IMG/VR virus record: IMGVR_UViG_3300049173_000058 | Location: 1 to 27,311 of that record | DNA: 27,311 bases | Source: a virus | Lineage: Duplodnaviria > Caudoviricetes | Reading direction: 5' to 3' (one strand) | Shown: positions 1,611-27,238 of the stretch, in pieces | Layout of the letters: each line of letters begins with the position of its first letter | Numbering within the stretch: position 1 is the first letter of the stretch | Position numbers and translations under genes: made by a program | The notes under the pieces: model-generated | Databases searched by the model: none | Seen by the model: only the letters and a program-made list of their open reading frames with translations | What the model was told of the DNA's origin: nothing

Positions 1611-1684
1611 GCGCACTTCGTCTAGCGGCCTAGGACTTCCCCGGTGAGGGGACAACGCGGGTTCGAATCCCGCAGTGCGCCCCA
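1611..1684 (+). tRNA. tRNA-like RNA with 5-nt anticodon loop (GGTGA, central GTG), Glu-like body, C discriminator, encoded CCA
   Basis: Perfect acceptor stem GCGCACT/AGTGCGC, D arm GTCTAGCGGCCTAGGAC, anticodon stem TCCCC/GGGGA, T arm GCGGG TTCGAAT CCCGC, then C-CCA. Confidence 0.8.
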
Positions 1685-19207: not shown

Positions 19208-20539
19208 TTACACGCCTGCGGGCTTCATGCTCTCGGAGCGCTCGAACAGCTCGGCGGCCCCGTGGTGGCGAAGGTGGGGCCGGATGAGTTGGCGCATGGT
19301 CGCGAAGCGCTGATCGGCTCGGCCCGAGCGGACTAGCGGGAAGTCGTCAAGGGCGGCATGCCAGGTCTTCAGGGCCTCTTCGAGGTGCCCGACCTGAAGT
19401 TGCCGTTCGGCGAGTAGTGCGCGCATGCGCACGTTGCCTCGGCGGTACACGGCGAAGCGAAGCCTGTTGCTCTCCTGTAGCGCTTCGATCGATCCGTGAA
19501 CGTCGCCGAGTTCGTAACGCACTTGCGCTACGTGGTAGTTGAGCGCGGCGGGATCGTAGGACCCGAGCGGCTTCCCTCGGCTCTCGGCCCTGTCCATGGC
19601 GGCTTCGGCTTCCCGCATGTACCGCAGTGCGGCCGTACGGTTCCCGTCCTGGGCGGCGGAGTGTGCTTGCTGCCCCTTCAGGAAGGCCAGCATGCGCGGG
19701 CCGGCCTTCGGGGATGCTGCGGCGGCGGCCTCGGCCAGGCGCAACGCGTCGGGGCCGTGCCCGAGGTCGACGGCCTGAACGCTCATCCCTCGAAGCGTGG
19801 TGCAGTAGGTCAGGTGGTCGTCGGCGGACCCGGCCAGTTCGAGGGCCTTCGTGTAGTAGTCCTGTGCCAGGCCGTGAAGCCCTTCGTCTACGGCCATGTA
19901 CCCCGTGAGGTAGCAGAGGTCAGAGGCGGCGGACATCATCGCTTTCCGCACGTCCTCGGGGGCCTCGGCCCGAAGGTACGGGACAACGGTGTTCACCAGG
20001 AATGACGCGGCCATGGGGCGCGCGGTACGGCCCCCGAATTGGTCGTCAAGCTCAGAGACCTTCTCGGTCATCTGAACAACCATGTCGACTTCCCCGAAGC
20101 CGTACTTCAGTCCTCGGCCCTTCTTCACGGCCTCGGCTCGACCAACGACGTCGGGCCACCCCGGAATCGTGAGCGCGACGGAGTAGAGGCCCACCCCGAG
20201 GACGCTTCGGCGTGAGGGGTCCATGTCGGCCCGCCCGAGGTCTATCAGCCCTTCCACGGTGCCCGGGGTCGGTGTGCTGCCCTTCGGGGCCGGTAGGCCG
20301 GCCTCGGCGTGCGTGACCTGCCTTCCGAGGCGACGCGAGAGAGCTTCGAGGATCAGCGGTCGGACCTTCGGCACGGGGGTTGTGCCCCCGAGCCACTTAC
20401 TGACGTTGCTCTTGTCGGCCCGGACGGACACCCCGGCTTCGTCGCCTGCCCGGTTTAAGGCCGTGGCGAGCTGTCCAAGGGTCCAGTCCGCTTCGCCGAG
20501 AAGGCGGCTCAGTCCCTCGTTCGGCTCCCGCTCGGCCAT
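19208..20539 (-). CDS. Streptomyces-type XRE-HTH/TPR regulator (NsdA-like architecture)
   Basis: N-terminal PN..L..LL.EA.W...QLA...VSKWL.G..P HTH; central D.SRRS.LG; LDDQFGG; helical repeat C-terminus; SD GGGGG. Confidence 0.8.
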   Translation of the reverse strand: MAEREPNEGLSRLLGEADWTLGQLATALNRAGDEAGVSVRADKSNVSKWLGGTTPVPKVRPLILEALSRRLGRQVTHAEAGLPAPKGSTPTPGTVEGLIDLGRADMDPSRRSVLGVGLYSVALTIPGWPDVVGRAEAVKKGRGLKYGFGEVDMVVQMTEKVSELDDQFGGRTARPMAASFLVNTVVPYLRAEAPEDVRKAMMSAASDLCYLTGYMAVDEGLHGLAQDYYTKALELAGSADDHLTYCTTLRGMSVQAVDLGHGPDALRLAEAAAAASPKAGPRMLAFLKGQQAHSAAQDGNRTAALRYMREAEAAMDRAESRGKPLGSYDPAALNYHVAQVRYELGDVHGSIEALQESNRLRFAVYRRGNVRMRALLAERQLQVGHLEEALKTWHAALDDFPLVRSGRADQRFATMRQLIRPHLRHHGAAELFERSESMKPAGV

Positions 20540-20550
20540 GCCTACCCCCG

Positions 20551-20588
20551 AACTTTCCACGCTTTCAACTCTGCCCAACTCCCCAAAG
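20551..20588. repeat. Degenerate ~10-nt tandem repeats in the divergent promoter region
   Basis: AACTTTCCAC GCTTTCAACT CTGCCCAACT CCCCAAAG. Confidence 0.4.
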
Positions 20589-20648
20589 GTACCGCCGCGG
20601 GCTACGGCGCGGTTGCGTAGAGCGACAACGTCAGCGAGAGGACAGACC

Positions 20649-21014
20649 ATGCCGGGGAATCAGGTAGAGCGCGTGAGCAGCGTCGATGCGCCGTTGGATG
20701 TGGAGACGATGACGGACACCATCGACATGGTGCTGTCGATGCAACTCAGCACGTCGACCCGCGCGGACATCGACGGGCGGACGGGCCGCGCCGTGGGATT
20801 CCTGAACTTGCTCCTGGCCGAGAGCGTCGACCAGGAAGACGAAGACACGGCCGCGATCGTGCGACAGGCTCACCGGTTCTTGGAGCTGTCCGGCCGGCCG
20901 ACCGAGCGGACGCCCGTGTTCGAGGCGTTCCGCTTCATGGTGGACACGGCGAAGCTCTCGAAGGCTCTCCTCTCGGCCTACGCGCAGAGGAACGGAATCG
21001 ACCTGCGAAGGTGA
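20649..21014 (+). CDS. Hypothetical helical protein (weakly DUF6415-like)
   Basis: ATG after the GTCAGCGAGAGGA leader/SD; PLDVETM motif; divergent from the regulator. Confidence 0.7.
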   Translation: MPGNQVERVSSVDAPLDVETMTDTIDMVLSMQLSTSTRADIDGRTGRAVGFLNLLLAESVDQEDEDTAAIVRQAHRFLELSGRPTERTPVFEAFRFMVDTAKLSKALLSAYAQRNGIDLRR

Positions 21015-21256
21015 CCGTCGCACCTGAGAGCCCGAAGAAGCGGGCAGGCCGCACGGGCTACACCGGGGGGTGGCGGCGTCCCACCCTGATCGAGTGGATG
21101 AACGACAACGGCACCATCTGTGCATCGTGCTTCGGGCACCGGACGGTTTGGTGTCCCGACTGTGCAGGGTTCGGCGGCTGCACGACGTGCAAGCACACGG
21201 AGAAGGTTCGGTGCCCCCAGTGCGCGGGCGGAACGCTCGACGGGTGGCGCTGGTGA
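21011..21256 (+). CDS. DnaJ-type zinc-finger small protein
   Basis: Four CxxC(xG) repeats; GTGA-coupled. Confidence 0.75.
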   Translation: MTVAPESPKKRAGRTGYTGGWRRPTLIEWMNDNGTICASCFGHRTVWCPDCAGFGGCTTCKHTEKVRCPQCAGGTLDGWRW

Positions 21257-21297
21257 CTCCCTTCCGTCCGTCCCCCCGTAGCGGATGGCAGGGAAAC

Positions 21298-21329
21298 GAG
21301 AAGGGGCGACCCGTGGGCCGCCCCTTCTC
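21298..21329. terminator. Bidirectional terminator hairpin
   Basis: GAGAAGGGGCG...CGCCCCTTCTC between convergent genes. Confidence 0.75.
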
Positions 21330-21334
21330 TCCGC

Positions 21335-21688
21335 TCAGGCTCCGAGGAACCCGTTCCGTCTCATGTACTGCTTTCGCGTCAGCTCGATGCCGGTACGGGC
21401 GTCCGGCCCGTGCTTCTCGATCATCTGCTGAATCGTCATCCCGAAGGTGTTCCGGAAGTAGTCCGGGAACCAACTCTCGTAAGCGGCCTTCCGGTTCAGG
21501 TAGGTGTTAATCCCGTTCCTGATCCGGGCCACGGTCGTACGGGCCTTCCGGGCCGCGCACGACGTTCCCGCCCACAGCTGGTCACCCTCGGCCGTTTCGA
21601 GAAGGACGGTGCGCTTCAGCTCTTCCTTCCCGCAGACCTCACAGGTGTTGCACTCGTCGGTGATGGCTCGGATGTGCCAGGCCGCCAT
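21335..21688 (-). CDS. Hypothetical zinc-binding protein
   Basis: CEVCGK.ELKRTV...GTSCAAR; own promoter and SD. Confidence 0.8.
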   Translation of the reverse strand: MAAWHIRAITDECNTCEVCGKEELKRTVLLETAEGDQLWAGTSCAARKARTTVARIRNGINTYLNRKAAYESWFPDYFRNTFGMTIQQMIEKHGPDARTGIELTRKQYMRRNGFLGA

Positions 21689-21724
21689 GTCTTGCCCCTT
21701 TGCCGTTCCTCGCTGACATGTGGA

Positions 21725-21754
21725 ACTCTACGGCGTTTAAACCGAGTGTGTCAA
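21725..21754 (-). promoter_or_regulatory. SigA/HrdB-type promoter TTGACA-N18-TAGAGT
   Basis: Consensus match; GTCAGCGAG begins 7 nt after the -10. Confidence 0.85.
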
Positions 21755-21771
21755 ATAGTAGCTTCAGGGGA

Positions 21772-21800
21772 AACGAAGAAGGGGCCGGTTTCCCGGCCCC
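21772..21800 (-). terminator. Intrinsic terminator
   Basis: GGGGCCGG stem, then TTCTTCGTT on the minus strand. Confidence 0.75.
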
Positions 21801-21809
21801 TCGGTTTCG

Positions 21810-21992
21810 CTAGGCGTTCTGAACCTCTCGGCACCGGTCGCACGCACAGTGCGCGTCATGTAGGGCGGTGCAGAAGTCGCTAGCGGGGGTGTCTCCCGTG
21901 TCGAGGACGGTTCCGCAGCATCGGCAGAACGTCAGGTTCTCCTCGCAGAAGTGCACCCATCGGTGAATCCCCTTGCGGAGCGAAACGGCCAT
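21810..21992 (-). CDS. Small Cys/His-rich (zinc-finger) protein, 60 aa
   Basis: SD GAAGGGAAGG; H..VHFC, CRCC, HCACDRC. Confidence 0.75.
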   Translation of the reverse strand: MAVSLRKGIHRWVHFCEENLTFCRCCGTVLDTGDTPASDFCTALHDAHCACDRCREVQNA

Positions 21993-22047
21993 TGGCCTTC
22001 CCTTCATCCGGCCCCCGGTTGGGGGCCTTCTCTCGCTGACAAGGAAG

Positions 22048-22076
22048 ACGGTAGCACCGTTTAAACGAGATTCCAA
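22048..22076 (-). promoter_or_regulatory. Promoter TTGGAA-N17-TACCGT
   Basis: Spacing and downstream leader motif. Confidence 0.75.
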
Positions 22077-22092
22077 ATCATAGCTTTGAGGT

Positions 22093-22121
22093 AAAGGGAA
22101 AGGGCCGGATCGTCCGGCCCT
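22093..22121 (-). terminator. Intrinsic terminator
   Basis: AGGGCCGG/CCGGCCCT stem, then TTCCCTTT on the minus strand. Confidence 0.7.
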
Positions 22122-22124
22122 CGG

Positions 22125-22427
22125 TCACTCCTCGGTCAGTCCCTTAGCGTGCTCCCACTCGGCGACCTGCCACGCGTCCACGCGGACCACGGTCACGCCC
22201 CATCCGCCTTCGCTGTACGCGTCGCGCACGGTTCGGCCGGCAGTGGCCGCCACGTCGAACAGGGTCGGTACGCGCACGGTCATGGTCCACTCGGTCCACC
22301 CGTCGCCCATCTGTGCCGTGGCCCCGTAGTCGACCAGGGCGCCGGTAACGGCGTCGAGGGTGTCGTCAGTCTCGGCCAGGTTCTTTCCCTGGTGCCTCAC
22401 TCGCACTACGGCCTGATACTCGCGCAT
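22125..22427 (-). CDS. Hypothetical protein, candidate antitoxin partner of the HicA-like ORF
   Basis: 100 aa, alpha/beta pattern, directly downstream of the HicA-like gene. Confidence 0.7.
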   Translation of the reverse strand: MREYQAVVRVRHQGKNLAETDDTLDAVTGALVDYGATAQMGDGWTEWTMTVRVPTLFDVAATAGRTVRDAYSEGGWGVTVVRVDAWQVAEWEHAKGLTEE

Positions 22428-22461
22428 CGTGTAAACCTTCTTCTCTCGCTGACACGGTGAA

Positions 22462-22483
22462 GGGGGCCGGTCTCCCGGCCCCC
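22462..22483 (-). terminator. Hairpin between the HicA-like gene and its partner (weak terminator or processing stem)
   Basis: GGGGGCCGG/CCGGCCCCC; only TTC follows on the minus strand. Confidence 0.55.
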
Positions 22484-22493
22484 GTTGGGGAGG

Positions 22494-22691
22494 TTACAGA
22501 ACCCCGAACCTCTTCGCTACGGCCTCATTGTTTCTCTGGCCCCTGCCCCCGGTGTTTCTGCTGATCCACTCGGCAGGCTTCGTCTTGTCGTCCGGGAAGC
22601 AAAGCCATCCGTGATTGCGGCGCTCAACCTTGTATCCGGCGGCCTTGATTGCCTCTGCCAGACCTTCCGGAGTCCGGTTCACCTTTGCCAT
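22494..22691 (-). CDS. HicA-like (dsRBD-fold) small basic protein
   Basis: 65 aa; AIKAAGYKVERRNHGW.CFP.DKTKP...RN....KRFGV resembles actinobacterial HicA-like toxins. Confidence 0.6.
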   Translation of the reverse strand: MAKVNRTPEGLAEAIKAAGYKVERRNHGWLCFPDDKTKPAEWISRNTGGRGQRNNEAVAKRFGVL

Positions 22692-22732
22692 CGATCGCCC
22701 CTCCCTGTGTGTCTCTCTCGCTGACAGGTGAG

Positions 22733-22761
22733 ACGTTACTAGTATTTGGAATCTCTGTCTA
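22733..22761 (-). promoter_or_regulatory. Promoter TAGACA-N17-TAACGT
   Basis: Spacing, operator-like motif in the spacer, downstream leader. Confidence 0.75.
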
Positions 22762-23320
22762 CCCGCTCAGGTGGGTTGTTGTTGCCGTTGTCTTTCGTCT
22801 TTGCCTTACCCCATGCCTCGGGTGCCCTGAGCGGGCGGGAGCGGGTTGGACCCCCCCTTGAAGCAAGCAATAGGCCCCCCACTGCTGGAGGTTGCTCACT
22901 TCAAGAGGGGACCTAGGGGAGTCGACTACGTACCTCGGTACGCCCGTCGGGGCTCTCGCTTTCAGGACCGGTATGGAGGGAATTAGCCTCACCGCAGGGC
23001 CGGGAAGTGTGATCAGAGCTAGGGGCCGCACGCCCGTCCCCTCTGCGGGGACACCGGTCCGGGCCTGCCTTCACCCGGTACGTCTGTCACTCGGTATGCC
23101 GTTCCCTCTCGGGCTTCTCTACCTCCCGGTGGCTGAATCCGGGGTCGGCTTTTGGTGAGGAGAGCCGTTCTCTTACTCCTGACTGTCTGGACTCCCCAGG
23201 GCGTCAACCTGGGGCCGCAGGAACGGTTTCCGGGGCCGTTCTCCCTTGGCATGTCGTCTCCCTCGGGTGCCATCCCTCGGGCCGTCGTGCGCGGCCACGG
23301 CCAAGATCACGCCGTGCGCC
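22762..23320 (-). ncRNA. Candidate large structured non-coding RNA (~560 nt)
   Basis: Own promoter, no convincing ORF, many nested helices including a 20-bp stem with four G-U pairs that form only on the minus strand. Confidence 0.55.
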
Positions 23321-23324
23321 ACGG

Positions 23325-23354
23325 ACGTTACTGTGATTTGGACTAGACGCGCAA
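23325..23354 (-). promoter_or_regulatory. Promoter TTGCGC-N18-TAACGT driving the non-coding region
   Basis: Same -35/-10 hexamers as the 25030-25058 promoter. Confidence 0.8.
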
Positions 23355-23564
23355 GCTAGACTTGGGGTGATCAAGGCCACGCGTTTACACGGTTCCAAAA
23401 CACAGCATGGGGACAGGCTTCGCCACGCCCAGGGCCGAGAGGCCGGCGAAGAGGCCGCGGGGCCCCCGTGCGCCCCGTACAGGGCCGTGCAGGGTGAGCG
23501 CGGGCATGGAGAAGGCCCCCGCCGGGACGGGGGCCGTAGGGGGCTCTCAGGGGCTCGACAGGCC

Positions 23565-23593
23565 AACGACAAAGGCCCCGCCGAAGCGGGGCC
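23565..23593 (-). terminator. Intrinsic terminator after lsr2 (second hairpin at 23514-23535)
   Basis: GGCCCCGC-TTCG-GCGGGGCC then TTTGTCGTT. Confidence 0.8.
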
Positions 23594-23614
23594 GTGGTCG
23601 AGCTGGTAGCGCGG

Positions 23615-23947
23615 TTACGCGGCCTGAGCCTTCTCGTACGCCTCACGGAGGGACGCGGGCACGCGGCCCCGGTCGCTCACCTCATAGCCGTTCTCGCGCG
23701 CCCATTCCCGGATGGCCTGAGAGTCGTCCTTCGGCTTCCCGGTGCCCATGCGGCGGACCGTCGCGCGGCCCCCGCCCACCTTCCGGCCCCCACCGACGTA
23801 CGGGGCCAGGACGTCACGCAGCTTCTCGGCGTTCGCGTCGGACAGGTCGATTTCGTAGGTCTTCCCGTCGAGGGCGAAGAGAACGGTCTGAGTGGCCTCG
23901 GAACCGTCGATGTCATCGACCAGGGTGATTTCGACCTTCTGAGCCAT
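23615..23947 (-). CDS. lsr2: Lsr2 nucleoid-associated protein (possible longer start at GTG 24085)
   Basis: MAQKV...LVDDIDG, YEIDLS..NA.KLR, IREWARENGYEVSDRGRVP; SD AAGGA. Confidence 0.95.
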   Translation of the reverse strand: MAQKVEITLVDDIDGSEATQTVLFALDGKTYEIDLSDANAEKLRDVLAPYVGGGRKVGGGRATVRRMGTGKPKDDSQAIREWARENGYEVSDRGRVPASLREAYEKAQAA

Positions 23948-24081
23948 GGTGTTTTCCTTCTTCGGGAAGAGTTCGATTACGTTGGATCTTTTACCAGCGT
24001 GGCAGTTACAGCCACAAGCGATTCCGCTTAGCGTGCGGACGGGGCACCGCTGGTGATGCCCCGTCATGCACCACCCGAGCT

Positions 24082-24735
24082 TCACGGGCTGACCAGCTCC
24101 CCGCTGTGAGCCTTCGCGAAGGCCCGAATCACGGCCTCGGGGATGCGCCCGGTGTCCTTCACGTTGAAGCCGTTCTGACGCCCCCAAGTGCGAATGATCG
24201 CACTAGAATCCGTGGCCGCCGAGATAGCGGGAGCCTTCTCGACCGAGGCCGCGAAGATGGGGGCCTGAACCGCCGGGGGCTCCCAGGCCGGCCAGGGGTC
24301 ATCCGACAGGGCCTCTTCGAGGGCCTGGCCGTGGTCGGCGACCAGCTCGACCAGCTCGGCCGCCACGGGCTCACGCTTCTTCAGAAGGTGCGTGAACAGG
24401 TGGACGGCCAGGGGTACCGCGACACTCGGCACGCCGAGGACAACGGGCCCGGGAACGGTGTCCGGAAGGGCGTTGCTCCACAGGCTGTACGCGAAGAACA
24501 GTCCGGCCAGGGTCCACGGGTAGGCCGTGGCCTTCCATCCCCAGTCACGAAGCCGGTAGGCCACCCATACGGCGACCGTCACGAAGCCTTCGACTATCAG
24601 GGGGTAGATCGGGGACAGGTCGACGTTCCCGCCGGTACCGAGGTATACGGACCGAAGAGCCTCATAGGAGAGGGTGAAGGCACCGGCCGCGATTCCCGCG
24701 ACTACGGCGGCGGCGGTCCTGTCGGTCTTCTGCAC
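24082..24735 (-). CDS. DUF2637-like membrane protein fused to an Lsr2 DNA-binding domain
   Basis: AF.LSY.AL, YPLIVEG, SL.SN, VP.VA..L..HL over four TM segments; C-terminal IRTWGRQNGFNVKDTGRIP. Confidence 0.8.
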   Translation of the reverse strand: MQKTDRTAAAVVAGIAAGAFTLSYEALRSVYLGTGGNVDLSPIYPLIVEGFVTVAVWVAYRLRDWGWKATAYPWTLAGLFFAYSLWSNALPDTVPGPVVLGVPSVAVPLAVHLFTHLLKKREPVAAELVELVADHGQALEEALSDDPWPAWEPPAVQAPIFAASVEKAPAISAATDSSAIIRTWGRQNGFNVKDTGRIPEAVIRAFAKAHSGELVSP

Positions 24736-24779
24736 TGGATTCCCTTCCGGCCCGAAGGCCGTTTCTCGCTGACATTGGG

Positions 24780-24809
24780 AACCTAGCACTTAGTAAGATC
24801 GCGTTTCAA
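24780..24809 (-). promoter_or_regulatory. Promoter TTGAAA-N18-TAGGTT
   Basis: Consensus match plus downstream leader. Confidence 0.8.
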
Positions 24810-24831
24810 GTCTAGCTTCGAATCGGAACGA

Positions 24832-24858
24832 GAAAAGGCCCCCCTTCCGGGGGGCCTT
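24832..24858 (-). terminator. Intrinsic terminator
   Basis: AAGGCCCCCC/GGGGGGCCTT stem ending in TTTTC on the minus strand. Confidence 0.75.
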
Positions 24859-24862
24859 CCCG

Positions 24863-24970
24863 CTACTTCTCTACCTTCACCCACTCGAAGCGGTGGGCGG
24901 TGTGAATGTCGCCGTCGCAGCTCTTGTGCCACTTGCAGACGAGCTTGAAACGCGGGTCTCCGAAGTGCAT
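24863..24970 (-). CDS. 35-aa microprotein (MHFGDPRFKLVCKWHKSCDGDIHTAHRFEWVKVEK), not in the ORF track
   Basis: SD GAAGGGGAAG; own promoter, leader and terminator. Confidence 0.7.
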   Translation of the reverse strand: MHFGDPRFKLVCKWHKSCDGDIHTAHRFEWVKVEK

Positions 24971-25029
24971 TTCTCTTCCCCTTCAGTCTCGCACCGGGCT
25001 TTTCCCGGTGTCTCTCGCTGACAAGGAAG

Positions 25030-25058
25030 ACGTTACTATCATTTGGAATCGGGCGCAA
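25030..25058 (-). promoter_or_regulatory. Promoter TTGCGC-N17-TAACGT
   Basis: Consensus spacing, operator-like motif in the spacer, leader. Confidence 0.8.
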
Positions 25059-25060
25059 GT

Positions 25061-25342
25061 TTAAACGCGCTCGTCTTTCGGGCGGAGTGTGATCCGGACT
25101 CGGCCCACGACGACCGACCAGGGAAGGCCGCCCTTAACCGTCGCGTGCCCCTCGGCGAGCATGAGTTCCCGGGCTTCTGTCGCGTTGCTCAACAACACGG
25201 CGTCTTCGATGCCGCTCAGGGCGGCGCGCTCTCGAATGCGCGCGATGGAGCGATCTAGGGCTTCAGCCGCTCCGGTGGTGTCGCCCACGTCCTCACCGGC
25301 CGAGGCGATTCCGTCGACCTCCCAGAGCATCCAGAGAGCCAT
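25061..25342 (-). CDS. Hypothetical protein (93 aa), probably leaderless
   Basis: No SD; TACGCT lies 6 nt upstream of the ATG; follows a terminator. Confidence 0.65.
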   Translation of the reverse strand: MALWMLWEVDGIASAGEDVGDTTGAAEALDRSIARIRERAALSGIEDAVLLSNATEARELMLAEGHATVKGGLPWSVVVGRVRITLRPKDERV

Positions 25343-25387
25343 AGGGGAAGCGTAGGCTGGTCCGGCCGGCCAGGCATCCGGGCAACG

Positions 25388-25412
25388 CAAAAGCGGCCCC
25401 CGAAGGGGCCGC
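25388..25412 (-). terminator. Intrinsic terminator
   Basis: GCGGCCCC-TTCG-GGGGCCGC then TTTTG. Confidence 0.8.
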
Positions 25413-25423
25413 CGTGGCGCGGG

Positions 25424-26086
25424 TCAGGCTATTTCCATCACGGTCCCGAAGGGGCAGACCGGCATCCCCACTTCGAGCCACTTCGCCGTGGTGCGGACCA
25501 CGTACCCGCCGCACTCGCACTTCGAGTTGCAGGCAACCTTGATCATGCGGGTTCCCTGCTTCTTCGGTCCGGACGAAGTCGGGGGCTCTTCCGGGGTCTC
25601 CTCGGGGTCTTCCGGCTTCGGCTCTTCCTTCGGCTGAATCGGCTTACCCATCGGGTACAGGGTGGCGTGATCGTAAGGGCCGATCTTCTTCGCCAGTTCG
25701 GCCAGCTTCTCCGTCAGTTCGGGGGTGGCTACCGTCGCGGTCATCTTGCCCGTGAGGCCGAGGGCCTTAGCGGCCTTCGCGAAGGCCCCCTTGTGGCCGC
25801 TCTTGCAGTCATCGGCCGCGTGCACCAGTTCGTGAATCAGAACGTCGAGAACGCGGGCTTCTTCCTTCAGTTCGGGGCTGATGAAGATGTGGTTCACGTC
25901 GTCCTCGGAGACGCGGCGCGCCCAGCACTGGCCGAGGATCTTTCCGTTCTCGCGCTTCGAGCCGTAGCCGAATCCGACCGAGACGTGAATCTTCTCCGGA
26001 AGGGGGAACTCGACCTTCTCGAACTCGGGGCGAAGAGCCTCGATCGCCAGGTGAAGCCACTCTTCGCGGGTGATGGTCTGAGCCAT
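25424..26086 (-). CDS. SprT-like HExxH metallopeptidase with C-terminal zinc ribbon
   Basis: LGQCW, IFISP, LIHELVHA....GHKG.F; C-terminal C..CECGGY...CP. Confidence 0.85.
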   Translation of the reverse strand: MAQTITREEWLHLAIEALRPEFEKVEFPLPEKIHVSVGFGYGSKRENGKILGQCWARRVSEDDVNHIFISPELKEEARVLDVLIHELVHAADDCKSGHKGAFAKAAKALGLTGKMTATVATPELTEKLAELAKKIGPYDHATLYPMGKPIQPKEEPKPEDPEETPEEPPTSSGPKKQGTRMIKVACNSKCECGGYVVRTTAKWLEVGMPVCPFGTVMEIA

Positions 26087-26142
26087 TTTCGTTCCCCTTC
26101 TCTATCCGGCCGGGCTTTCCGGCCGTCTCGCTGACAAGAAGA

Positions 26143-26171
26143 ACGTTACTGTGATTTGGAATCTGCGTCAA
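26143..26171 (-). promoter_or_regulatory. Promoter TTGACG-N17-TAACGT
   Basis: Near-consensus, operator-like motif in the spacer, leader. Confidence 0.85.
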
Positions 26172-26212
26172 GTGTTTAAACGGGCTGGTTCAAGTGATAG
26201 CATCAGGGCATA

Positions 26213-26243
26213 CAAAAACGGCCCCCGCCGAAGCGGGGGCCGT
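26213..26243 (-). terminator. Intrinsic terminator
   Basis: ACGGCCCCCGC-TTCG-GCGGGGGCCGT then TTTTG. Confidence 0.85.
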
Positions 26244-26287
26244 CTGCACCGACCTTCGATCGTGTCAGCGAGAGAAGGGGAAGGTGC
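26214..26287 (-). ncRNA. Candidate ~74-nt antisense sRNA complementary to the conserved early-gene leader and SD
   Basis: TACACT -10 at 26300-26295, G 7 nt later, hairpin GCACC...GGTGC enclosing TTCCCCTTCTCTCGCTGACACG, then a terminator. Confidence 0.6.
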
Positions 26288-26306
26288 GAGATTGAGTGTA
26301 CGGGAA

Positions 26307-26729
26307 TCAGGGTGGCGGAAGCCATTCACCCTGGGGCCAGACCACGCGGCCTATGCGGGCCGCCCGGATCAGCGTCCGGCAGCTCGGGCACGGCTCGCGC
26401 GTCACGTACAGGGTGGCCCCCTGGCGGTGCTCCCTGGGGGTGAGGCGGACGCAATTCCGCTCCGCATGGTCAGCCGTACAGTTCGAGTAATCCGAGTTCG
26501 GCGGGCACTCCTCGGCCGTCATGCGGCCCCGAGGGCAGGCACCAGCGGACAGGCAACCGGGCACGCCCGGCGGCGGGCCGTTGTACCCGGCGCCCACCTG
26601 AGTAGGCAGGCCGGCCAGAGGCTTGACCATGACCGCGCCCACCTGGGCGCGGGTGCAGTCCCCGCGTGCGCTCACGGCCTGGGCGATTCCGAGGAAGTAC
26701 ACATCCCAGGTAGGCCGCGGGTCACTCAC
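26307..26729 (-). CDS. Deoxycytidylate (dCMP) deaminase
   Basis: RPTWD.YFL.IA..V..R.DC.R.QVGA, GYNG, HAERN, PCPSC. Confidence 0.93.
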   Translation of the reverse strand: MSDPRPTWDVYFLGIAQAVSARGDCTRAQVGAVMVKPLAGLPTQVGAGYNGPPPGVPGCLSAGACPRGRMTAEECPPNSDYSNCTADHAERNCVRLTPREHRQGATLYVTREPCPSCRTLIRAARIGRVVWPQGEWLPPP

Positions 26730-26877
26730 TGGCGGCCCCTCGGGCCATGTCGCGCACGATGGCGAACGCCTGGGCGTCCGTGAAGCCCGCGCCCTTCAGG
26801 GCCTCGAAGTACGAGTGAAGGGCGGTAGCGGCCGCGATCAGGTCAGCGGCCACGCTGAAGGGGCTCTTCGTCGTCAA
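26722..26877 (-). CDS. Small helical hypothetical protein (51 aa)
   Basis: TTG after SD AGGAG; Y..L..AGFT..QA..IV motif common in phage ORFs. Confidence 0.7.
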   Translation of the reverse strand: MTTKSPFSVAADLIAAATALHSYFEALKGAGFTDAQAFAIVRDMARGAASE

Positions 26878-27238
26878 GGAATCTCCTGGTCTCGATCCCT
26901 GCCTTCTCGGCAAGAACGGCGGTCATGGACGCCCCTCGGCTTCCGTCGAGGATGAAGGCCAGGCACACATCAGGGCCGTCTTCGATCATCAGGGCGTTTC
27001 GCAGGTACCCGGCACGCTTGCCGTGGCGGTCCCAATTCGCGGGGTAGCGCACACGGTGCATGCCGGTCTCTACGGCGTACGTGTCGGCCAGGGCATCCGC
27101 CCCTGTGGGGCAGGCTCCATGCATCAACACGGCTTCATGGAAAGGCGTCTTGTGCTCATACAAAGCCCGGAAGATCTCAAGTTCGATCTTCCGGGCGTCG
27201 GTCCAGTCGCGTGAACCGGTGACGAGAACCTTCAGCAC
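26843..27238 (-). CDS. SLOG / YspA-like (DUF2493) protein
   Basis: KVLVTGSRDW, HGAC.TGAD.LA, PANW..HGK.AG..RN..M, AF....SRG. Confidence 0.9.
   Translation of the reverse strand: MLKVLVTGSRDWTDARKIELEIFRALYEHKTPFHEAVLMHGACPTGADALADTYAVETGMHRVRYPANWDRHGKRAGYLRNALMIEDGPDVCLAFILDGSRGASMTAVLAEKAGIETRRFLDDEEPLQRGR

Follow-up and report, generated by a model that had tools for sequence, protein, structure and literature searches.

A structured non-coding RNA of Streptomyces phages and plasmids with a predicted pseudoknot core resembling that of mycobacteriophage RNA origins

Introduction

Wetzel et al. 2020 (PMC7157519) reported that most mycobacteriophages with parABS partition systems carry no repA and that, upstream of parA, a non-coding RNA is made. 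In that study, the RNA region is needed for stable lysogeny, and Alma, LadyBird and RedRock replicate without a protein initiator; about 600 bp is enough for replication with the ORFs knocked out, and in Alma and LadyBird the region is both necessary and sufficient. Lytic growth is normal in origin deletions of these two phages, and an RNA-seq signal lies over the region. An RNA region serves the replication of most extrachromosomal mycobacterial prophages, and such phages are almost confined to cluster A (PMC7157519). The terms "RNase H" and "secondary structure" occur nowhere in that paper.

Two further groups of replicons offer points of comparison. ColE1 RNA II is a folded transcript of ~550 nt that forms a hybrid with its template; RNase H cuts it back and Pol I then extends it (PMC5043065). 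In the Streptomyces plasmids SCP2, pFP1, pFP11 and pWTY27, Rep proteins bind iterons or adjacent sequence (PMC3583192). A Kocuria plasmid without Rep, pKPAL3, is described in PMC5711781. PMC11109978 contains no plasmid or phage motif. In a literature search that left most subscription journals outside its reach, neither the structure reported below nor an RNA-based Streptomyces replicon was found described.

Results

The window analysed here is a whole viral contig of 27.3 kb (27,311 nt). Its plus strand carries HK97-type head genes, tail genes and an endolysin, and its minus strand small early genes, lsr2 among them. Streptomyces is assumed to be the host because a neighbouring protein has a relative from Streptomyces cinereoruber and because Streptomyces genomes and plasmids contain the element described here. 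Genes for tRNA-Phe and an ARAGORN-called tRNA-His (1482-1555 and 1611-1684, plus strand) lie between the terminase subunits, and HNH genes are located at 224-538 and 1999-2319. A 480-aa regulator ORF (19208-20650, minus strand) probably starts near 20539, its first 37 codons being out of frame in two relatives. The element and its surroundings comprise the following features.

23615..23947, minus strand: lsr2 gene, upstream neighbour of the RNA element
23574-23593, minus strand: terminator-like hairpin of lsr2 (context)
23383..23390, minus strand: upstream GTGTAAAC motif, related to GTTTAAAC of other early promoters; invariant in the phage-copy alignment
23325..23354, minus strand: RNA promoter TTGCGC-N18-TAACGT with no GTCAGCGAG after it (sequence and alignment of copies)
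22775..23317, minus strand: predicted RNA body, ~545 nt, conserved across copies; start inferred 7 nt past the -10 box
22717..22761, minus strand: next early promoter, TAGACA-N17-TAACGT with a GTCAGCGAG site, which bounds the element and drives the 65-aa gene
22494-22691, minus strand: 65-aa gene, conserved, with an invariant H-G-W

The promoter and the ~545-nt body are conserved in nine other Streptomyces phage genomes, namely eight IMG/VR contigs and one prophage (G281) beside the window copy. All full-length phage copies lie in the same early-gene block, immediately upstream of the 65-aa gene. The first-pass annotation had seen no convincing gene in this stretch, and the comparison bears this out. 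Each of the eight homologues compared has 4-11 indels whose lengths are not divisible by three, and the longest frame is not the same from copy to copy, so a coding region is ruled out; the two ORFs overlapping the element gave no PHROG match.

The folding energy of the element is ordinary (minus strand z = -1.48, with 5 of 100 shuffles equally stable; plus strand z = +0.48), and the case for structure therefore rests on covariation. RNAalifold predicted 123 pairs from nine copies, 26 of them with a change on both sides, and one loop exchanges among GAGA, UUCG, GCAA and UGCG in the aligned copies. Homologues with compensatory changes, which the first-pass annotation had named as a check, are thus present among the phage copies. 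The covariation, the tetraloop swaps and the absence of a conserved frame uphold the earlier reading of a promoter-driven, multi-domain non-coding RNA whose transcript is predicted, and we are highly confident that this is a real structured RNA. It belongs neither to GOLLD or ROOL nor to any other Rfam family: searches at gathering and relaxed thresholds matched no family to the element or its homologues, with chance-level scores only, and Rfam recognised only tRNAs in the window. A likeness to RNase P or tmRNA motifs, seen by eye, was dropped because no covariance model matched.

Support for each helix was counted as paired cells over nine aligned copies, a double change being one in which both sides of a pair are altered. 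All seven helices proposed earlier can be drawn in the window, but only three are kept in the alignment. The 20-bp stem 22851-22870/22892-22911 with its four G-U pairs is one of these, with 176/180 cells paired and 7 of its 20 pairs double-changed; 39 of its cells are G-U and none is A-C, in support of the minus strand. The hairpin at 23194-23214 (61/72 cells) was likewise retained, as was helix GGACCGGU (67/72), although the 5' arm of the latter competes with a better-supported helix, Pa. The four that proved not to be conserved are the stem round the A/C loop (22762-22771/22826-22835, 51/90), helix 22928/23077 (25/63), the long-range helix 22916/23190 (42/72) and the hairpin 23221-23241 (27/54). 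The repeat G(A/G)GAACGGC occurs three times in the window copy, as noted before, but only once or twice in each of the other eight. The resulting model consists of the following parts.

23296..23316, minus strand: 5' hairpin P1; 50/54 cells paired, no double changes
23247..23281, minus strand: hairpin P2; 63/72 cells, 3 double changes
23194..23214, minus strand: hairpin with loop G/U-U-G/A-A-C-G; 61/72 cells, 2 double changes
23053..23079, minus strand: helix Pa, 23079-23075 with 23057-23053; 45/45 cells, 1 double change
22995..23067, minus strand: core pseudoknot helix Pb, 23067-23062 with 23001-22995, bulged C at 22998; covariation
23052-23036, minus strand: hairpin Pc, enclosed by Pb; 54/54 cells, 5 of 6 pairs double-changed
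22969..22994, minus strand: hairpin Pd, with the conserved loop (A/G)(G/C)UAAU(U/C)CC at 22987-22979
22937..22944, minus strand: GGCGUAC motif, invariant in aligned Streptomyces phage and plasmid copies, where it also served as extraction anchor
22851..22911, minus strand: 20-bp stem ending in a seven-G run; G run in all 20 aligned copies
22772..22835, minus strand: CCCGCUC motif and A/C-rich tail; CCCGCUC also stands at the 3' end of mycobacteriophage ori RNAs

Near the 5' end, the P2 loop UGGCA can pair with UGCCA just 3' of it, forming a 5' pseudoknot that is invariant (45/45 cells); in some plasmid copies both sides, by eye, become GGUG/CACC. This pairing competes with a long-range pairing to 22812-22822 (79/99 cells, broken in the copy L015). 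Pa closes the loop AAGG-CAG-G-CC-CG-GA, and an equivalent stem of different letters is present in plasmid and mycobacteriophage copies. Pb is 100% paired in 21 Streptomyces copies, with compensatory changes in three of its six pairs. No terminator follows the 3' end of the RNA body, and 22772..22835 is the candidate zone of the RNA-to-DNA switch proposed below. One phage copy (L018:3880-3930) has an insertion of ~45 nt with a small hairpin in its A/C-rich tail.

The likeness to mycobacteriophage origins lies mainly in the core. A covariance model, R1, was built from the 21 Streptomyces copies only and run against nine mycobacteriophage ori loci (Alma, LadyBird, RedRock and six relatives from 130 BLAST hits; Et2Brutus and Gladiator were outside this set). 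R1 matched 9/9 loci, once each and on the RNA strand, with 23.1-34.5 bits; elsewhere in these 99.7 kb nothing scored above 13.8 bits (SCP2). In Alma and LadyBird the hits lie within the deletions reported to destabilise the prophages (26463-26959 and 25900-26299, respectively), and in RedRock within the replicating fragment (PMC7157519). Bit scores alone do not decide homology, as a background hit of 30.3 bits that lacks the core helix and loop turned up among 151 genomes of the class.

The Streptomyces phage, plasmid and mycobacteriophage groups all have the series AAGG-X4-CC-CG ... CC-GG-Y-C-Y3 followed by a hairpin with loop RSUAAUYCC, in which X pairs with Y round a bulged C. In every group a stem further upstream, Pa, encloses the X loop, so that the core forms a predicted pseudoknot. 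Pb keeps one register and one bulged C in all three groups, while its four variable pairs take two or three Watson-Crick forms each; all four are Watson-Crick in 30 of 31 loci across phages, plasmids and mycobacteriophages, in an anchored search that required three of the four pairs (L194 being the one locus without a match). In the 21 Streptomyces copies the core is 96% paired, with a covariation score of 0.597 against 0.214 when shuffled and at most 0.18 when slid, a score inflated by the relatedness of the copies. The Pd loop of L015 is identical to that of Alma, and the loop of the plasmid copy L186 to that of LadyBird. Across all of IMG/VR, a 28-nt core pattern gave 22 hits, of which 6 were of the Streptomyces type, 15 were mycobacteriophage-type origins and 1 was due to chance, and it gave none in 401 actinobacterial genomes; this pattern and the model boundaries were set after the likeness had been seen.

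Outside the core and short motifs, no homology to the mycobacteriophage RNA was found. Searches with nhmmer between the Streptomyces and mycobacteriophage RNAs were weak (E 0.13-2.3), and an alignment of the window with Alma stayed at shuffle level (38/200). By eye, a motif TGCGCCC-GAA...GTGTC stands just past the promoter in some plasmid copies (L186:19835-19885) and in mycobacteriophage ori RNAs (L221, 5' region), hinting at a homology that reaches the 5' end. Together, these data make it very likely that the RNA is homologous to the mycobacteriophage ori RNA. The class, which the first-pass annotation had been unable to assign, can accordingly be named through the core common to the RNA-based origins of cluster A.

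Diverged copies were also found by BLASTN in eight Streptomyces plasmid records of 31-80 kb, and further ones on genome contigs by BLASTN and R1. A profile made from phage copies alone covers most of the plasmid-copy length (E 1e-18 to 1e-39). In the alignment, each set of redundant loci is represented a single time. The plasmid copies are intergenic. In 8/8 records a gene of 44-95 aa, ribbon-helix-helix-like by eye, lies upstream of the RNA, and the copies have a conserved CATCGTAGC-type box upstream. They are followed by a conserved hairpin block of ~250 bp (L187:16180-16360, L180, L191, L193-L195); this block and the small upstream gene are absent from phage copies. GCG(A/C)AGC loops are enriched in the block, with 15 seen against 3.4 expected among sequences that are related to one another. 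The GCGAAGC loop is presumably a stable DNA mini-hairpin, and the block is a candidate lagging-strand initiation signal.

PLSDB assigned no replicon type to any of the eight plasmid records. No Pfam Rep family was found in 32/32 annotated genes of NZ_CP063809 or in the genes scanned elsewhere (24/35 of NZ_CP108823, 22/43 of CP107817 and 7 genes adjoining copies in other plasmids). The neighbourhoods of the plasmid copies have no large protein common to all of them. As most genes are without any family, a novel Rep is possible; Streptomyces Rep proteins may also be missing from Pfam, in which SCP2 RepI/II gave only MarR matches. Overall, it is likely that the RNA is the replication origin of these plasmids. 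Stand-alone genes for the RapZ C-terminal (RNA-binding) domain lie 1-2 kb downstream of several copies, as listed below, and L176:1501-1777 (genome G171) is a truncated copy in a non-phage context, with the core and 3' stem only.

L186:21584-22045: RapZ C-terminal domain gene
L187:17680-18087: RapZ C-terminal domain gene
L192:8091-8555: RapZ C-terminal domain gene

Other searches delimit the distribution of the element. R1 found it in 1/151 Streptomycetaceae genomes and in 0/151 genomes of the order of G007, and DNA contigs of four runs yielded further variants. Among named phages, neither the element nor a plasmid copy had a BLASTN match, and 5 of the 11 genome BLASTN hits were chance matches of ~35 nt. 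A metagenome pattern scan returned five hits, none homologous, and an over-loose pattern no homologue among at least 120 loci on genome contigs. The RNA was found in 0/5 more distant phages with only the regulator gene in common; four fragmentary relatives gave no RNA match, but the neighbouring gene is missing there too.

The phages themselves appear to integrate. A tyrosine integrase is encoded by three complete relatives with terminal repeats and by the G281 prophage, which sits inside a 338-kb chromosomal contig; two phage relatives are classed as proviruses, and no plasmid state was seen. ParA was found in 0/4 Streptomyces phage records (the three complete relatives and G933), the control record being positive. 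With integrase present and ParA absent, a classic parABS phage-plasmid is ruled out, and we file the element as a homologous RNA in a new setting rather than as a parABS prophage origin. The same four records encode no family A polymerase; a primase and a DnaB-like helicase are encoded by Streptomyces phage relatives, and no initiator was seen among the G410 proteins scanned.

G933 is complete and syntenic, with a helicase 87% identical, and has two small genes in the place of the RNA and no R1 hit. The RNA is therefore an accessory cassette and not a required origin of the phage family. In L5, an integrating cluster A phage, R1 had no match in 50,000 of 52,297 bases (best 11.8 bits). Thus, among the mycobacteriophages tested, the RNA accompanies parABS rather than an integrase, whereas in the Streptomyces phages it is found together with an integrase and is optional. 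G933 retains the 65-aa gene without the RNA, which argues against a type III antitoxin system; the 65-aa neighbour looked HicA-like by eye, yet had no PHROG, Pfam or PDB match. A relative of this gene was seen in an isolate assembly, on a contig of 42.7 kb that is roughly as long as one phage genome and could be a free circle.

The promoter was found in the sequence as first annotated, with TTGCGC (23354-23349) and TAACGT (23330-23325) separated by an 18-nt spacer on the minus strand. Across seven aligned copies neither TTGC nor the TAACGT box varies, and TAACGT is invariant in nine. It is also, as had been noted, the only promoter of seven without GTCAGCGAG downstream.

26171, 25058, 24809, 22761, 22077 and 21754, minus strand: six promoter-like sites, each followed by GTCAGCGAG (sequence)

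No GTCAGCGAG-like site with fewer than two mismatches lies near the RNA promoter in the 9/9 copies checked, and the promoter of the tenth phage copy, inspected separately, lacks one too. The first-pass annotation took GUCAGCGAG for an mRNA leader, but a repressor operator is just as plausible. Each genome has 9-15 occurrences of GTCAGCGAG, most of them directly after early -10 boxes, a placement expected of an operator. One complete relative has a gene, outside the window, whose product is homologous to the L5 gp71 repressor (26% identity, E 3e-13), and cluster A repressors of the gp71 type bind oriented asymmetric sites, some within promoters (PMC6550527). Judging from these motif positions, GTCAGCGAG may be where an L5 gp71-like repressor binds, as its operator or stoperator, and not an mRNA leader, in which case the RNA promoter would stay on in a lysogen, like the mycobacteriophage ori RNA. 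The loci concerned are window positions 20630-26272, with nine GTCAGCGAG sites, and L211:18714-19229. GTTTAAAC/GTGTAAAC and GATTCCAAAT motifs (23383-23400) recur both in and upstream of early promoters and are possibly the sites of a second regulator.

A small RNA directed against the leader was rejected, there being no complement of GUCAGCGAG with one mismatch or fewer inside the element. No antisense promoter or -10 box is conserved over the 5' part of the RNA in the phage copies, which leaves copy control unexplained. Further in, a promoter-like TTTCAG-N18-TAGCCT (22960-22989, plus strand) would drive antisense transcription across the 5' two-thirds of the RNA; 8/9 phage copies preserve the -10 box of this site, but it overlaps the conserved core loop.

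Discussion

The reading we favour is that of an RNA-primed replication origin acting on the free circular phage genome with no initiator protein, and we consider it probable; that the origin is still active in this phage is judged about equally probable. The first-pass annotation had set function as a DNA origin against an RNA; here, RNA and origin are most likely one and the same thing. By analogy to ColE1, host RNA polymerase would transcribe the ~545-nt RNA, which would fold round the pseudoknot core common to mycobacteriophage origin RNAs and remain hybridised to the template near the G run as an R-loop. RNase H would then trim the RNA and Pol I extend its 3' end, so that this end primes DNA synthesis without an initiator protein. 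Transcription, R-loop formation, trimming and extension are all inferred from this analogy, and the competing 5' pairings would provide a possible control switch. The G run, CCCGCUC, the A-rich tail and the lack of a terminator fit ColE1-like priming. ColE1 homology was rejected on a shuffle-level score, so the element would work like a ColE1 replicon but is not one. In this integrating phage, the target of the cassette would be the circle that is un-integrated or has been excised, with a plasmid-like fallback state or early copy amplification in mycelium as the outcome. Once the prophage is integrated, an active origin would have to be silenced.

Several observations could also be explained if the phage had captured a plasmid primer RNA and turned it into a decoy or incompatibility factor, which lysogens would produce and which would disturb related plasmids or phages or titrate a core-binding host factor. 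The phage integrates and has no ParA, its copies lack the downstream block and small upstream gene of the plasmids, the cassette is swappable, and the RNA promoter is free of the putative operator. However, ten phage copies retain the entire 545-nt fold with compensatory changes, down to the 3' G run, CCCGCUC and A-rich tail, and this is beyond what a decoy should need. Phage and plasmid RNAs also have different 5' ends, which speaks against interference of the antisense type. We therefore regard a decoy as unlikely.

Alternatively, the RNA may serve as an auxiliary origin in lytic growth only, where an early R-loop would load the phage DnaB-like helicase and primase, with no plasmid state. 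The location among early cassettes with the same promoter class agrees with this, as do the primase and helicase genes, the missing family A polymerase and the lack of an initiator among the G410 proteins scanned; phage primase could stand in for the missing downstream block. Nevertheless, G933 has the same replication genes without the RNA, and Alma and LadyBird with their origins deleted grow lytically as normal (PMC7157519), so that we rate this explanation as rather unlikely, below the decoy.

It is improbable that the pseudoknot core is a general RNA module, such as a ribozyme or protein-binding domain, and the Streptomyces RNA unrelated to replication. Such a module would account for the lack of a significant mycobacteriophage-Streptomyces RNA alignment outside the core and for the RapZ C-terminal RNA-binding domains near several plasmid copies, but in the genome samples searched the core occurs only in mobile elements and never in a chromosomal housekeeping context, and the plasmids have no other recognised replicon. 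Least probable is a structure acting as single-stranded DNA, be it a DNA-level origin or a transfer signal with an incidental transcript: DNA-type hairpins do lie downstream of the plasmid copies, but the promoter is conserved at a fixed distance, G-U pairs occur on one strand only (39 G-U, 0 A-C) alongside GNRA/UUCG loop swaps, and an RNA-seq signal covers the homologous mycobacteriophage region (PMC7157519). These last two explanations and all others jointly are left with a small share of the probability.

Elements of this kind are known; what appears to be new is the structure, together with the plasmid family and the setting in an integrating phage. More tentatively, and with rather less confidence than in an RNA-primed origin as such, we propose a hitherto undefined, actinobacteria-specific class of pseudoknotted primer RNAs, not related to ColE1, that would be the initiator-free replicon of a group of Streptomyces conjugative plasmids and more than 100 mycobacterial prophages, and that integrating Streptomyces phages would carry as a plug-in cassette that stays on in lysogeny. 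If true, one phage would have both an integrated and a self-replicating state. The distribution also shows a probable origin RNA travelling as a cassette between plasmids and phages, integrating ones included. The element offers a candidate replicon for Streptomyces plasmids of 31-80 kb that typing tools leave blank, and possibly a sub-kilobase, protein-free origin for Streptomyces vectors. The 2020 mycobacteriophage work left the structure and mechanism of the origin RNA open (PMC7157519); the core, backed by covariation, supplies particular base pairs that can be mutated in existing plasmids, and so opens the mechanism to direct testing.

Comparison with known systems

Like GOLLD, ROOL, OLE, raiA, RNase P and tmRNA, some of which are phage-borne, the element is a large, ornate, covarying RNA, but it matches none of their Rfam models, nor those of introns. 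The theta replicons of Streptomyces are likewise low-copy circular plasmids with a non-coding replication sequence (PMC3583192); SCP2 has no match to R1 (best 13.8 bits).

ColE1 RNA II is a promoter-driven non-coding RNA of ~550 nt with a 3'-proximal G run and no terminator (PMC5043065); the element's promoter, predicted length, G run and lack of a terminator fit this pattern. In the plasmids that bear the element, no recognised initiator was found among the genes scanned, most of which have no family. In sequence there is no likeness between RNA II and the element (42/100 shuffles score as high; R1 7.3 bits), and no equivalent of RNA I was found at the 5' part of the phage copies, the one antisense candidate lying inside the core (8/9).

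The closest relatives are the cluster A origins of Alma, LadyBird, RedRock, Gladiator and Et2Brutus, for which the text of PMC7157519 describes no structure. They stand beside parABS in phages without integrase (PMC7157519), whereas the element is an early cassette of phages with integrase and no ParA and, unlike them, also occurs in conjugative plasmids. The core insert is 56-63 nt in the element against 42 nt in the mycobacteriophages, and the 5' domains differ. Both are non-coding regions of similar size, ~500-600 bp in cluster A (PMC7157519), and both have the same predicted pseudoknot core with its bulged C, the UAAU loop and the 3' CCCGCUC.
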